DNA of 64,000 bases from contig CM000153.2 of assembly GCA_000004695.1 (NCBI GenBank), forward strand, positions 4,000,001-4,064,000, read 5' to 3'. Every line of letters begins with the position of its first letter. Position 1 is the first letter of the stretch. Below, one piece after another: positions 10,233 to 58,334 of the stretch. The stretch comes from Dictyostelium discoideum (taxonomy: Eukaryota). A model generated the notes under the pieces. It was not told the DNA's origin. It saw only the letters and a list, made by a program, of their open reading frames with translations, and searched no databases. The position numbers were made by a program, and so were the translations under genes.

Positions 10233-11861
10233 TTAAATTATTAAAACTGATAAAATAGAAATTAAAATAATAGTAAATAAATTGAAAATTAATTTTGAAG
10301 TATTATTATCATTATCAGCTGGTTCTTTTCTGGCACGAACAGTGATTTTATCAACATAAACTGTTGGTTGATCTTCATTAGCTTTTAACCAAAATCCATC
10401 GAAAACTTCATCAGAGTCATCAAAAGGAACAATAATTTTAGTCCAAGTATTAGCAGCAATTGGTTTGCCATTGAGTTGTTCGACCGAATAGGTTTGTTTC
10501 ACTTCATTGGTGTGATCAGGTTTCTTATGTAATATTTGAAGATTGAGATCTTGGCTACCCATTTCACCACCATGGATCCAAAATTCCAATTGTTTGTGTA
10601 CATTTGTTTGAATACAGCCATAGCACATGAAATGTAAAGATTTCTCTTTGATGGGATTAAATTTAATCGAAAATTTTCCTTCACATGGAATTACCTCGGA
10701 GGAGTTTATAACGGGTTTTGAAGTGCTCCAATCATCGGCCCAATGGGTAATCTTATCATTGTAGATATCAAAGGTATCAGAGAATTGAAGTGGTCTACCA
10801 TTGTTTTTTGCCAATCTTTCTAAATGATTTTTATAACCTTGACCAAATGTAGTTGGATCACCTTCATAATTTTCAATGAGTGATGGGACATTACAATCAC
10901 CGACCAACCAAGACCAAGCCAAATAATGAACACCATTGTCGTCACAATATTGGAGGAAATCTTTAAGGAAATCATGTTGACAATCCTTTTGACCAGTTTC
11001 AGTAGCGATCATTGGAATTTGATCAAAAATTGGTTTAATTTCAATATCCCAACAACCTTTGGATTTACATTGATTGAATTCGTAAGCATGTAAAGAAGCG
11101 GCAATTTGTTGTGGTGATAGAGTATCTCTTGGCATGTAATCAAAGAATTTCAAAAATGAAGAAGCATATTGAATTCCACTCATCAATATGATATTGGTCG
11201 CACCAGTTGATCTAACAGCCTCGAGGAGTTGTTGCATTCCGACTGTACCGTAATCTTGATTGGTGCATTGTGTACCATCTTTCCAACATTGCCATGCATC
11301 GTCATCATTGTATGCATTGTCGTTTGGGTATGGTTCATTGTAGAGATCAAAGATAACACGTGAATTATCTTTAAAATCTCTAGCAACACTCTTCCAAAAA
11401 TCTACACTACTAATATTGTTTGGCATTGGAATTTGTGCTTTTGCTTGTAATCCATTCTTTGAACTCCAATGAAGATCCAAAATTACTGCCAAATTATGAT
11501 CACAAAGCATCTCTACATATGATTTTATTGTATCTCTATATCCATTGCCATACCATAATGCCTCATTTCCATGATTACCCAACCAACAATCTTCATTCAA
11601 TGGTACACGAATTGCATTCAATTTCCAGCTTCTAAGTAATTCAATATGTTCTGAATCACATGGTCCATCGAAAACTTGTGCATTTTGAACACACATATAT
11701 TCTGTACCAGGACGATTTACTCCTCTAAGCATTATTATTTCATCATCAGAGTTATATATTGTATTTCCTTTTATATGTAATCCATGGGTTGTTTGTTCTC
11801 TTGAATATATATTTTTAATTAAAAAACATATAAAAAATATTAAACTAAATTTTATTTTCAT
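10233..11861 (-). CDS. Glycoside hydrolase family 5 (cellulase/endoglucanase-like) with signal peptide, C-terminal beta-sandwich (CBM-like) region and hydrophobic tail (possible GPI signal)
   Basis: Single 542-codon ORF. N-terminal signal MKIKFSLIFFICFLIKNIYS. GH5 hallmarks: LRGVNRPG, ILDLHW, FDLYNEP (acid/base Glu), IATETG (nucleophile Glu), WSW. C-terminal ~170 aa extra domain, then the ...NDNNTSKLIFNLFTIILISILSVLII tail. Confidence 0.8.
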   Translation of the reverse strand: MKIKFSLIFFICFLIKNIYSREQTTHGLHIKGNTIYNSDDEIIMLRGVNRPGTEYMCVQNAQVFDGPCDSEHIELLRSWKLNAIRVPLNEDCWLGNHGNEALWYGNGYRDTIKSYVEMLCDHNLAVILDLHWSSKNGLQAKAQIPMPNNISSVDFWKSVARDFKDNSRVIFDLYNEPYPNDNAYNDDDAWQCWKDGTQCTNQDYGTVGMQQLLEAVRSTGATNIILMSGIQYASSFLKFFDYMPRDTLSPQQIAASLHAYEFNQCKSKGCWDIEIKPIFDQIPMIATETGQKDCQHDFLKDFLQYCDDNGVHYLAWSWLVGDCNVPSLIENYEGDPTTFGQGYKNHLERLAKNNGRPLQFSDTFDIYNDKITHWADDWSTSKPVINSSEVIPCEGKFSIKFNPIKEKSLHFMCYGCIQTNVHKQLEFWIHGGEMGSQDLNLQILHKKPDHTNEVKQTYSVEQLNGKPIAANTWTKIIVPFDDSDEVFDGFWLKANEDQPTVYVDKITVRARKEPADNDNNTSKLIFNLFTIILISILSVLII

Positions 11862-12406: not shown

Positions 12407-13913
12407 TATTTATTTATTTAAAACAACCAAAAACAATAATAGATACATGAAAAAAGGATTTAATTGAAAAAAATAGTAATAATAAACACACAATTATGAC
12501 AATGCCATTTTAATACATATTGATTAATTTTATTATTATTTTTATTATTATAAAATTTATATGCTTACTTTTTTGTTTTATTAATTATTCAATCCAATTT
12601 CTTTAAATTGAGTATAAAAATAAAATAAAAAATAAAATTAAATATTATTTTAAAAAGTACAATATGATGCGTTGTTATTACTATAATTGATTATTTTATT
12701 CTTTTAATATTTCTTAAAACAACATAGTAACAAAATATAAAATTTTAATTTGTATTTTATAAATATATATATATATATGTGTGTATGTATGTATCTAGTT
12801 TGTATAGATAAATATTTTAAAACTATATCTTGGTTTTTTTGTTTTTTTATTTATTATTTAATTTTTTTTTTTTTTTTTTTTTTTTAATAAAATTTTAAAT
12901 TTAATATTTGCTTATTTTTTAAAATATTAAAATAATAATTAAATCATTAATTTAAAAGTTTTACAAAATTTAAGGAATAAATGGGAATTAAAACATATGT
13001 TCATACAAAACAATACCAATAATTATTATTTTTTTTTTTTTTTTTGAAACACACACCCACATAAAAAGTTCAAATTACTAAAAAATACAGATATTTGTGT
13101 GGTTCATTTTTTTATTTTTTTATTTTTTTTTTTTTTTTAAATGGATTAAGGAAAATTATTTATATACCCACATTAAAAAATACATAAAAAAATTTTATAC
13201 TCTCTAATTTTAATTTTTTTTGATAATTTTTAATATTAAAAAGTGTTGTGTGCTGTTATATAAAAAATTCCACCCCACTACCAATATTTTTGATGTGTTA
13301 GTGACTTTTTACAGAATATTTGAAAGTTATTGGAAATAACCTCAACTATCCGTAATTATGTTATTATTATTATTTTAAATTTACAAATACAAATAAATTG
13401 TTTGTTATGGTATTAAAAACTGTTTTCCAAATGTATAGAAACCCCAATAAAAATTTATTTTAAAGTAAAGAATGAATGATTTTTATTCACCATTTTAAAA
13501 TTATTATTTTTTAAAATAGTAGATTTAAAATATAATAGTTACTTTCATTGTTTGAAAATATTATTATTATTTTTTTATTTTTTTTTTATTTTATTTTTTT
13601 TTAAACATAAAAACACTTTTTTTTTTTTTTTTTTCAATAATAAAAACAAATTCATAAAAACAAACCCAAAATATCTATTTTAGATTTTAAAGAATAAAAA
13701 AATAAAAAAATAATAAATGATTTGGTGGATTATAAAGTGTGTGAGTGTGTTGAAAAATGAAAATGCTTATTACAATTTTTGGTGTTAAATAAAAATGATT
13801 TACTTTTTTCGTCTTTATTTAATCATTTAGATTATAATTTATACTACAATTAAAAATATACACAAATAAAATTCTATATTTTTTAATTTTGGAAATGATT
13901 TAATCAAAATTTT

Positions 13914-51044: not shown

Positions 51045-55036
<3,992 letters not shown>

Positions 55037-55352
55037 AAAAAAAAAAAAAAAAAAAAAAAATTATAATTAAAAAAGTATGAAAATAAAAACCTAAATGAAG
55101 CATTAAAAAAAAAAATAAAAAATAAATACTGTTTTTTTAATCTTTTTATTATAACCTTTTTCAGAGTCACGAAAGATATTCTCTTTGTATGTACACACAA
55201 AAAAATATTTACATTGTTGGTTGTTATTTTCCCAAATTTTATAAATTTGTAAAAAAAAAAAAAAGATTAATATTTTTTTGATCATTGGGTTGTTCAACTG
55301 GATTTAGATTCAAATATAGATGAAATTGGGTTAGTTTATAATATATTTTTTA

Positions 55353-55829
55353 TTAATTAAAACATCTTTGACCAGCAGATGGATTATAACAAGTATTTCC
55401 ACATGCTTGGTAACCAAATGAACAAATTACACCACCTGGATAACATTTTTGACCTGATGATGGACTATAACAAGATCTACCACATGCCTCATAACCAAAT
55501 GAACAAATTATACCACCTGGATAACATTTTTGACCTGACGATGGACTATAACAAGAATTACCACATGCTTGATAACCAAATGAACAAATTACACCACCTG
55601 GATTACATTTTTGACCCGATGATGGACTATAGCAATTATTTCCACATGCTTCATAACCAAATGAGCAAACTACACCACCTGGATAGCATTTTTGGCCTGA
55701 TGATGGACTATAGCAGTTATTTCCACAAGCTTGATAACCAAATGAACAAACTACATCACTTGCACTTTCAACATTTTTTAAAAAAAATAAAATGCCAAAT
55801 AAAAAAAATAAAATTGAAATTAATTTCAT
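55353..55829 (-). CDS. Small secreted cysteine-rich protein built from five tandem 27-aa modules (C-x6-C-x3-C-x8-C)
   Basis: Signal peptide MKLISILFFLFGILFFLKNVESA, then 5x (V/I)(V/I)CSFGY(Q/E)ACGNxCYSPSSGQKC(Y/N)PGG. Underlying DNA is five 81-bp direct repeats (55379..55785), ~90% identical. Confidence 0.7.
   Translation of the reverse strand: MKLISILFFLFGILFFLKNVESASDVVCSFGYQACGNNCYSPSSGQKCYPGGVVCSFGYEACGNNCYSPSSGQKCNPGGVICSFGYQACGNSCYSPSSGQKCYPGGIICSFGYEACGRSCYSPSSGQKCYPGGVICSFGYQACGNTCYNPSAGQRCFN
55379..55785. repeat. 5 x 81-bp coding tandem repeat (minisatellite inside the Cys-rich gene)
   Basis: Units begin ...tggactataacaag / tggactatagcaat; the period of 81 nt was counted directly. 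Confidence 0.9.
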
Positions 55830-56330
55830 TATTAATAATTGTTATCACACTGTTTTTCAAATAAAAAAAAATTTTAATTTATACTTTTTGTTTTTTTTTA
55901 ATATGTAAAATTCAACAACTACAACAACAAAAGTTAATAATAATATTATTTATTTATGTTCATTCGTGTAAAAAATATAGTGGCTATTAATTTAATAAAT
56001 TTTAAGAAATAAAGATTTCAAGATTTTTTTAAAATTTTTTTAAATTTTTTTATCATCTGATAATTGATATTTATTTGTTTTTGATTTTTGAATTTTTAAT
56101 GTCGATTGGATTTAGTATTGTATCATTTTAATATAATTCATTTAATAATAATGAATGACCATATGAAAAAAATTATTTATATTATTATTTAGACTATTAT
56201 TTAAACTGTTTTTATCATTATTATGACTATTTTTTTCAACACTACTATTTTTATTATTTTCATTTTTAATTTCATTTTTCGGAGTCATGAGATATTTTAG
56301 ATATTTTTAAAAATAATTTTTTTATTTTTT

Positions 56331-56418
56331 TAAATATTTTCGGGAAAAAAAAAAAATATTTAATATTTTCGGGAAAAAAAAAAAAATATTTAATATTTTC
56401 GGGAAAAAAAAAAAAAAA
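56331..56418. repeat. 3 x ~30-bp tandem repeat (atattttcgggaaaaaaaaaaaaatatttaat) immediately 5' of the PLB-like gene start
   Basis: Three near-identical copies, each with a rare ttcggg core in an AT background, ending ~30 bp before ATG 56446. Confidence 0.85.
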
Positions 56419-56445
56419 TTATCACACACCCAACCACAATAAAAA

Positions 56446-58081
56446 ATGAATAAAATTATAATTTTAATTTCTTTATTTTTAAATTTTTTATTTGGTTATG
56501 TTGTTTGTTTAAATGAAAATAATCAAAAATCACAAAACTTAATAATACCAACATATTCAATTAAATTAAAATCTGATGGTGAATATTTGGTTTATTCTGG
56601 AAATGATACATTATCAATTGCACAAGCATCATATACAAATGAAATGATGTCAATTGGATGGGGTTACATTTCAATCACTACCAATCCAAAATATAATGAT
56701 TCATTACAAATTGAAGCAGCAGGTTATCTTGAAGGTTATTTATCATATGAAATGATTTGGCAAAATTGGAATAATATGATGGTTAATCAAAATGCTAATA
56801 ATTCATTTGGAAATGATATAATTAGTTGGGCAAAAGAGAATATTTTATATATGAATCAACAAATCCAATTAAATCAAAATGATCCATATTGGATAAATGT
56901 TAATTTAGTATTACAACAATTAAATGGTTTAACCAATGGATATAGTGACGCAAATCAAAATCCAGATCGTCAATTATCATTAATGGATTTTATACTTTTA
57001 AATATGAATGTTGAAATTTATGATATTATGAATTCTTTAAAGAATAATTCATCATCATTTTATCAACAACCTAATAATAATAGTTTTGATAATAATCAAC
57101 ATTGCTCAGCATTAATTAAATTAACAGATGATTTAACAGAATTATATACAGGTCATACTACATGGAGTGATTATTATCAAATGGTTAGAATGATTAAATC
57201 ATATAATTTCAGATTTTCAAAATTAGTAGCTGCAAAATCAAATACTACAATGTTTTCAGGTTATCCTGGAGTATTGATGAGTGTTGATGATTTTTATATG
57301 TTGGATTCGAAATTGGTTGTTTTGGAAACTACAAATGGAATAAAAGATAATGATAGTGAGTTATTCAAACTTATTAAACCACAATCAGTTTTAACTTGGA
57401 TTAGAATTATAGTAACCAATCGTATTGCTCATAGTGGAAAATCATGGTGTGAAATATTTGAAAAAGAAAATAGTGGTACCTATAATAATCAATGGATGAT
57501 AGTTGATTACAATAAGTTTATAAAAGGTGTTAGAGTTCAAGATGGTACACTTTACGTTTTTGAGCAATTACCAGGCTATGTTGAATATGCTGACGTAACT
57601 AATATTTTACGTACTGGTTATTGGCCAAGTTTTAATGTCCCTTACTTTGAAACAATTTCTAATATGTCTGGATTTAATTATCAATCATCATCAAGTGATA
57701 GTAGTAGTAGTAGTGGTAGTATAGCATATGAACAATATCCTCGTTCACAAATTTTTAGACGTGATTCAAATAAAGTTTATTCAATTTCAGATTTTCAAGC
57801 ATTTATGAGATATAATGATTTTCAAAATGATCCTTTGGCATATGGTGATCCAGGTAATCAAATTTCAAGTCGGTTTGATCTTATTACTCCTCAAAATAAT
57901 GCTTCCGCTGCTGGTGGTATAGATTCTAAAGTAACCTCTTTGGAACTAATTAATCAATTTTTAATGATAGCTCAATCTGGCCCAACTCATGATCAAGAAC
58001 CACCATTTTCTTGGTCTTCTGAAAACTGGAAAAATAAATATCCAACAATAGGACAACCTGATACATTTGATTTTGGTATGT

Positions 58082-58173
<92 letters not shown>

Positions 58174-58204
58174 TATAAAAAAATAATAATAATACTAATG
58201 TTTA

Positions 58205-58239
<35 letters not shown>

Positions 58240-58334
58240 AATAATAATAATAATAATAATAATAAAAAGAATGGGTAACATTTTCAACAACATCATTTGG
58301 ATCATTTCCATCAGCATCAAATGAAAAAAAGTAA
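56446..58334 (+). CDS. Phospholipase B-like protein (PLBD/LAMA family), secreted
   Basis: Signal peptide MNKIIILISLFLNFLFGYVVC. PLBD signatures: AAGYLEGYLSYEMIW, NQHCSALIKL (Cys at the conserved autocleavage site), TELYTGHTTWSDYYQMVR, WCEIFEKENSGTYNNQWMIVDY. Proposed last intron 58076..58269 (donor GTATGT after ...DTFDFG, (AAT)n-rich, acceptor AAAAG) gives the C-terminal exon 58270..58334 (EWVTFSTTSFGSFPSASNEKK*). Alternatively the poly-N run is read through (the track ORF ends at 58278). Confidence 0.7.

Follow-up and report, generated by a model that had tools for sequence, protein, structure and literature searches.

The window analysed here, a stretch of 64,000 nucleotides, is part of chromosome 4 of D. 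discoideum AX4 (its ORF at 10236-11861 is identical to DDB_G0286061). At 55353..55829 on its minus strand it carries an intronless ORF of 158 codons plus a stop, which encodes a putatively secreted cysteine-repeat protein of 158 amino acids. One neighbour of this gene is a PIP5K-type kinase gene, which ends upstream near 55010, and the other is the divergently oriented gene for phospholipase B-like protein C (plbC; Q54M94), which begins at 56446. An AATAAA hexamer on the stop codon (55349..55354, minus strand) may function as a polyadenylation signal. Both neighbours have low-complexity regions. The PIP5K-type gene (52059-55010 and 51045-51977, plus strand) contains long poly-Asn, poly-Ser, poly-Thr and poly-Gln tracts, and the end of its ORF seems to continue into an intron or into 3' sequence. 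The plbC ORF (56446-58278) ends in a tail of poly-Asn and poly-Phe that is probably intron, since the annotated plbC protein has 565 amino acids.

A second ORF overlaps the repeat gene on the plus strand (55379..55864). The GC content at third codon positions is 8% in the minus-strand sense frame versus 52% in this antisense ORF, and the differences among modules, paralogs and orthologs fall mostly at third positions of the minus frame. On these observations the plus-strand ORF is an antisense shadow. They agree with the sequence-only reading of this DNA, which had assigned coding to the minus strand and had considered it unlikely that the minus-strand ORF was an artefact of the opposite frame.

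Orthologs of 158 amino acids, with the same flanking neighbours as in the window, are found in three further assemblies. The ortholog in an AX4-like assembly is identical to the window gene, while those in D. cf. discoideum and in another D. discoideum strain differ at 17 nucleotides (16 of the 17 synonymous, one nonsynonymous) and at 15 nucleotides (10 of the 15 synonymous), respectively. The same product is annotated as a gene in assembly GCA_054883475.1. An exact match to the 158-aa protein came from a single genome assembly and from no Logan contig (an index that also lacks AX4 plbC), and the sequence is absent from a collection of 15 billion proteins in which the called 131-aa paralogs described below are equally absent. 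Against the four-module paralogs, the window gene has dN/dS values of 0.22-0.40. Taken with the codon bias, the mostly synonymous strain differences and the conserved promoter, these values indicate that the ORF looks like a real gene under selective constraint.

A TATA-like box, GTATAAATTAAAA, with an oligo-dT run after it (55872..55884, minus strand) lies ~45 bp upstream of the ATG, an arrangement that is kept in orthologs and paralogs and that we take to be a Dictyostelium core promoter. Further upstream, alignment of orthologs and paralogs delimits a block of ~80 bp that contains TTTACACGAATGAAC (55943..56024, minus strand) and is a candidate shared cis-regulatory element. This block is near-invariant in three orthologs and three paralogs, one of which is only 43% identical in protein sequence. 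We therefore take the TATA/oligo-T element and the ~80-bp block to be a family-specific promoter. The suggestion that the repeat gene shares a divergent promoter region with the PLB-like gene thus stands as a description of the geometry only; the repeat gene has a promoter region of its own, ~225 bp long, which is homologous to the promoter of its paralogs.

Several other features lie in this intergenic region. A (TTG)n microsatellite within the promoter (55913-55930) differs in length by strain, being longer than in the window in the D. cf. discoideum ortholog and much longer in the other D. discoideum strain. Directly upstream of the plbC start codon, a 30-bp unit, AATATTTTCGGGAAAAAAAAAAAAATATTT, occurs three times (56333-56420). 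All three copies are also present in the AX4-like assembly, and the 14-base core of the unit does not occur in the plbC loci of D. citrinum, D. cf. discoideum or the other D. discoideum strain. A 48-aa Asn-rich ORF (56142-56288, minus strand) lies within the discoideum-specific 1.3-kb segment described below, and its region has weak similarity to sequences upstream of the paralogs (13522-13681 and 10659-10745 of L001, the D. cf. discoideum locus that holds them). It is probably non-coding and was probably co-duplicated with the repeat gene.

Modular architecture and gene history

The protein consists of a leader, MKLISILFFLFGILFFLKNVES, the tripeptide ASD and five modules, and contains nothing else, as had been noticed from the sequence alone. 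The leader (residues 1-22; 55764..55829, minus strand) is a predicted signal peptide on the basis of its hydrophobic N-terminus, with a putative cleavage site at its end, and it is kept in the paralogs at L001 14291, 15021 and 17947. The protein is thus presumably secreted. Modules 1 to 4 occupy residues 26-52 (55674..55754), 53-79 (55593..55673), 80-106 (55512..55592) and 107-133 (55431..55511), and the C-terminal module 5, truncated to 25 amino acids, occupies residues 134-158 (55356..55430), all on the minus strand. Every 27-aa module has the pattern C-x6-C-x3-C-x8-C, with the next Cys after six residues. At the DNA level the modules form an 81-bp tandem array of 4.9 copies (55361..55759; TRF score 564, 87% matches). 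The five-module architecture is confirmed to lie far beyond chance.

Pairwise DNA identity is 83-93% within modules 1-4 and 74-81% between these and module 5, so that the earlier figure of ~90% was slightly generous. Amino-acid identity between modules ranges from 62 to 93%, and synonymous divergence from 0.12 to 0.56. The ~136 residues of the mature protein include 20 Cys, 19 aromatic residues and 23 Gly, with a pI of ~8 and a net charge of +3.

Comparison with other genomes indicates that the repeat gene is a member of a lineage-specific Dictyostelium gene family with three to five modules. In D. cf. discoideum, a cluster of paralogs at L001 is interspersed with cofilin and copine genes. Two of its genes encode 131-aa proteins with four modules each, which are 86-88% identical to the window protein over four modules; the rest of the cluster comprises a four-module gene whose model is faulty, a gene of 104 aa whose three modules are divergent, and a fragment (12602-12697). 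The named paralogs are KAM9986010.1 and KAM9986013.1, and more distant relatives are AX4 DDB_G0269420 and PPL_04718 of Heterostelium album. The Dictyostelium paralogs share with the window gene the leader peptide, the module and the ~80-bp upstream block; they differ in having three or four modules rather than five, in lying at another locus and in being annotated as hypothetical proteins only. The deposited N-terminus of KAM9986010.1 (L001 10001-10687) is odd (MSRMLTIYHS...) and lacks the family signal peptide, and the continuous ORF at L001 10268-10687 likewise lacks a leader. The gene model may be wrong, or this copy may be decaying.

Homology between the window gene and its paralogs is strong over 55301-56053 and weak up to ~56279, which takes in ~225 bp upstream and ~50 bp downstream of the coding sequence. 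Within the array, modules 1 and 2 of the window pair with the first modules of paralogs A and B (module 1 being nearest to these), module 3 pairs with the third modules of B and A (1/75 and 3/75 nucleotide differences, respectively), and module 5 pairs with the terminal, fourth module of B (5/75). Window module 3 is separated from the third module of B by 1/75 nucleotides versus 10/75 from window module 1. Modules that are nearer to the paralog modules at the same position than to their own neighbours imply that the array is older than the gene duplications. Module 4 is the sole exception. It is nearest to the third modules of A and B (both 5/75) and to window module 3 (6/75), and the closest paralogs have only four modules; it is probably a later internal duplicate of module 3. 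The earlier proposal of recent expansion or concerted evolution is therefore right only in part: a single module looks like a later duplicate, and the array has neither expanded recently as a whole nor evolved strongly in concert.

The single difference in 75 nucleotides between module 3 (55512-55592) and its counterpart in paralog B (L001 18184-18264), which lies in a different genome, is far below the gene-wide dS of ~0.24. This near-identity may reflect gene conversion between dispersed paralogs. No variation in module copy number was seen: the count of the 81-bp unit among strains that had been proposed earlier was run on assemblies, and gave five modules in all three strains, each an independent genome.

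The repeat gene is carried on a 1.3-kb segment (55139..56437), delimited by a blastn comparison of 54000-57500 with the D. citrinum locus. In D. citrinum, the spacer between the PIP5K-type gene and plbC measures 176 bp in place of the 1.3 kb in the window, and tblastn detected no module. The genomes examined from the D. discoideum group carry the segment. As an outgroup comparison, the best PLB match in D. firmibasis lies at a locus that is not syntenic with the PIP5K-plbC interval. The distribution across these genomes makes an insertion in the discoideum lineage likely, rather than a deletion in D. citrinum.

Relationship of the module to PF10645/CBM52

The only recurrent Pfam match for the window protein and its relatives is PF10645 (Carb_bind), which corresponds to CAZy family CBM52 and was defined on the C-terminal β-1,3-glucan-binding region of S. 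pombe Eng1. The window protein itself scores 18.7 bits (E 0.002), below the gathering cut-off of 25 bits, and at E<=10 the only other Pfam match is a chance-level one to conotoxin. Scores among relatives are 24.4 bits for a paralog (P0001), 38.7 for P0039, 43 for P0069 and 160.8 for P0057. A word-indexed protein search with the single window sequence returned three matches only. A search of 1.84 billion proteins with a three-module profile seeded on the Dictyostelium proteins returned 250 cluster representatives at E<=1e-3; the stricter limit of E<=1e-10 was passed by 104. Many of the 250 are mostly metagenomic proteins of ~100-160 amino acids with a signal-like leader and three modules, several of which look bacterial. 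Dictyostelids are represented by AX4 DDB_G0269420 and Heterostelium PPL_04718, and the tardigrade Hypsibius by long multi-module proteins, one of which is a fusion with an astacin protease. A protein from a chytrid has six Carb_bind matches and scores 160.8 bits. Among 98 profile matches scanned, 35 are PF10645-positive at E<1e-3 (best 8.5e-48), and one of these (P0107) is a fusion of Carb_bind with GH16.

This placement is further supported by profile comparison. A two-module profile built from Dictyostelium sequences only aligns by hhalign with the PF10645-positive profile at 98.4% probability (E 5.9e-15); all eight Cys and the CG and CY.P motifs are matched, and the Dictyostelium sequences have one additional residue in the last loop. 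Against the PF10645-positive profile the window protein attains 88.1 bits, whereas 500 shuffles with fixed Cys positions reach at most 14.3 bits, which indicates that the similarity extends beyond the cysteine framework. The PF10645 model has 49 positions and runs from the second Cys of one unit to the fourth Cys of the next. The PF10645-positive two-unit stretches that were compared have a last loop of x7, against x8 in the window protein. Across the superfamily the spacing x6/x3/x7 is commonest (206 modules), and x6/x3/x8 occurs in 70 modules from 35 of the 107 proteins examined. On the strength of these profile matches, the window module is a divergent, uncharacterised form of the PF10645/CBM52 repeat and not, as had been supposed before any search, a novel disulfide-rich mini-domain. 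Its score below the cut-off and its longer last loop mean that its ligand specificity could differ.

PF10645/CBM52 proteins have tandem four-Cys units of ~25-27 amino acids, C-x6-C-(G)x3-C-Y-x-P...C, with a Gly after the second Cys and a Tyr after the third as in the window protein. The latter differs in its x8 last loop, PS(S/A)GQ(K/R)C, in consisting of five units only and in its amoebozoan host. Binding of β-1,3-glucan by the C-terminal module of S. pombe Eng1 is stated in a paper that cites the original work for it (PMC7388972, citing Martin-Cuadrado 2008). Eng1 also has a GH81 domain; no glycoside hydrolase domain is found in the window ORF, which holds only the leader and modules. Such an appended domain is not obligatory for CBM52, as GBP of M. 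oryzae stands alone: this secreted protein has CBM52 as well as a signal peptide, binds β-1,3-glucan and is found in the cell wall (bioRxiv 10.1101/2025.07.03.663104). The window protein resembles GBP in combining a signal peptide with repeat modules and in having no catalytic domain.

Bacterial three-module secreted proteins (such as MFM9879616.1 from a Burkholderiaceae MAG) have the same layout as the window protein, with a leader, tandem modules and nothing more. The x8 last loop, PSxG(Q/E)xC, is common to both, and identity over three modules is 43-44%, but the bacterial proteins mostly have a C-x7-C middle loop where the window has C-x3-C, and they stop at three modules. The Burkholderiaceae MAG homolog (L002 8001-10075) lies directly upstream of a GT2/chitin-synthase-like gene and a TPR protein gene, and this pairing recurs on three metagenome contigs with an identical protein. 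At two other bacterial loci the GT2 neighbour is not repeated, the genes there being an MFS transporter in one case and unknown genes in the other. We therefore rejected the bacterial gene neighbourhood as functional evidence.

AlphaFold2 predicts a confident β-hairpin structure both for three modules (pLDDT 93.0, pTM 0.71) and for the full-length protein (pLDDT 94.8, pTM 0.73), the latter with locus-derived sequences left out of the alignment. Structure prediction and profile comparison of the modules, both suggested in the sequence-only reading, thus gave a confident model and the hhalign match to PF10645. In the model, the leader forms a helix (residues 3-20), and each module comprises a tight hairpin (QAC-GN-NCY), a one-turn helix (PSS) and a strand, KCY. 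This last strand pairs over a PGG turn with the first strand, V(V/I)C, of the next module. A hairpin that bridges modules in this way suggests one continuous interlocked structure rather than beads on a string. The disulfide pairing within the window protein is presumed.

Other cysteine-rich families were compared and set aside. Galaxin-like repeats (PF24748; ~30-aa repeats with di-Cys, at least 28 bits) are defined by di-Cys motifs (PMC2726143); the window protein has no CC and no match to this family at E<=10. Granulin, with its 12-Cys motif, four CC pairs and stacked β-hairpins (zebrafish AaE, PDB 6cku), was rejected, as the window protein does not have this motif. There is no Pfam match at E<=10 to Dicty_CTDC (EcmA/EcmB), EGF-like or CREMP/SP75 models, a threshold at which HMMER filters may hide very weak matches, and none to hevein/CBM18, defensins or knottins. 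The earlier reading had found the cysteine spacing to be unlike the patterns that it knew for EGF, hevein, granulin and defensin. PDB profile searches with two profiles gave nothing meaningful (the best match was a spider double-knot toxin at E ~3), and a fold search of the PDB that included Foldseek found no match for the window protein.

Possible roles of the repeat protein

We consider it about an even chance (roughly 0.5) that the window protein is a stand-alone, multivalent polysaccharide-binding protein of a wall or matrix. This reading draws on the PF10645 homology, the fungal precedent of a stand-alone protein, the GH16 fusion, the composition rich in aromatic residues and Gly, and the hairpin model. 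The product would be a secreted protein of ~14 kDa, a rigid, disulfide-stapled chain of β-hairpins made of five CBM52-like modules. Export would follow removal of the signal peptide and oxidative folding in the ER, and the conserved aromatic residues of the modules (F5, Y7, Y15 and Y24) together with the Gly turns could dock along glucan chains, so that a fibrillar polysaccharide would become coated or cross-linked by the protein. As ligands, the cellulose-based sheath, stalk and spore wall of Dictyostelium are candidates, as are the β-glucan walls of prey or neighbouring microbes. The ligand, like the time and place at which the window gene would be expressed, is putative.

Carbohydrate binding in PF10645/CBM52 is known for two fungal proteins only, and many family members, such as the tardigrade astacin fusions and the small bacterial proteins, have no carbohydrate context, which argues against a carbohydrate role. 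We know of no β-1,3-glucan in Dictyostelium walls. Literature searches found nothing on DDB_G0269420, and searches for PF10645 and for secreted cysteine-rich repeat proteins of Dictyostelium found nothing on this repeat family. Of the roles mooted earlier, an adhesive or matrix function is compatible with polysaccharide binding; an antimicrobial one is less likely for a mature protein with the modest basicity given above.

A purely structural protein of the matrix or wall, which would serve as a rigid spacer or as a cross-linker, perhaps by way of disulfides between molecules, and would lack specific glycan recognition, is a rather unlikely alternative. Comparable cases would be the Dictyostelium spore-coat proteins, avian CREMP, the DPY modules of DUMPY and the coral galaxins. 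CREMP, SP75, DUMPY DPY and galaxins are, like the window protein, extracellular or predicted to be so and built from many short four-Cys β-hairpin modules, and tandem two-disulfide modules are typical of structural proteins (PMC12723725; PMC2726143). The repeats-only architecture, the predicted rigid and elongated shape, and weak Galaxin_repeat matches in some superfamily members also fit such a role. However, 14 kDa would be a very low mass for a framework protein, the cysteine spacing is unlike the Cx4Cx5Cx8C of CREMP/SP75-type modules (PMC12723725), and the di-Cys motifs of galaxins are absent. The even number of Cys (20) means that no free thiol is expected, and the strongest homology is to a carbohydrate-binding family.

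The strong purifying, not diversifying, selection between strains (one nonsynonymous difference in 17) argues against a role in defence or predation, in which the protein would bind microbial surfaces to agglutinate, tag or kill, or would inhibit enzymes, within a family that expands under biotic pressure. The protein is also only weakly basic (pI ~8, net +3) and not obviously amphipathic, and known toxin and defensin families match at chance level only. Such an effector is therefore unlikely, even though the multigene family with three, four or five modules, its tandem paralogs and the lineage-specific insertion would suit it, as would the wide occurrence of homologs as small secreted bacterial proteins and the fact that β-1,3-glucan, the CBM52 ligand, is a polymer of fungal walls.

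We also entertain, as a speculative idea of still lower probability, that the family members are secreted pattern-recognition lectins, recently mobile and expanding, that recognise foreign glucans (yeast or fungal β-1,3-glucan, or bacterial exopolysaccharide) rather than the cellulose of Dictyostelium itself. The module would then be common to them and to soil bacteria such as Burkholderiaceae, perhaps through exchange, and the family would represent a structurally unsolved, carbohydrate-binding β-hairpin-chain fold that bacteria, fungi, amoebae and tardigrades have in common. A precursor comparable to progranulin, from which proteolysis would free modules as cell-cell signals in growth or development, appears very improbable. 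We give least weight to a non-functional gene, a recently inserted, unexpressed and decaying duplicate: the gene is missing at the D. citrinum locus, no transcript evidence was found and one paralog region looks fragmentary (L001 12602-12697), but the ORF is intact and of the same length in four genomes, strain differences are nearly all synonymous, codon bias is strong and the promoter is conserved.

For annotation, these results imply that the PF10645 threshold misses a large subfamily with the x8 loop. The superfamily is of modest interest for its breadth (bacteria, a chytrid, a tardigrade and dictyostelids) combined with the lack of a solved structure, as is the window gene for its clean module-level history and its presence/absence polymorphism relative to D. 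citrinum. If polysaccharide binding is the correct reading, Dictyostelium would possess multivalent CBM52-like proteins that stand alone and form a small family, and a fungal β-glucan-binding module would be extended to amoebae and, via the profile matches, to many bacteria and to tardigrades. The window protein, at 14 kDa, would offer a compact candidate for the first structure and ligand definition of the family. For the biology of Dictyostelium, it is one more candidate for a constituent of the cellulose-based matrix or for a part in prey recognition.
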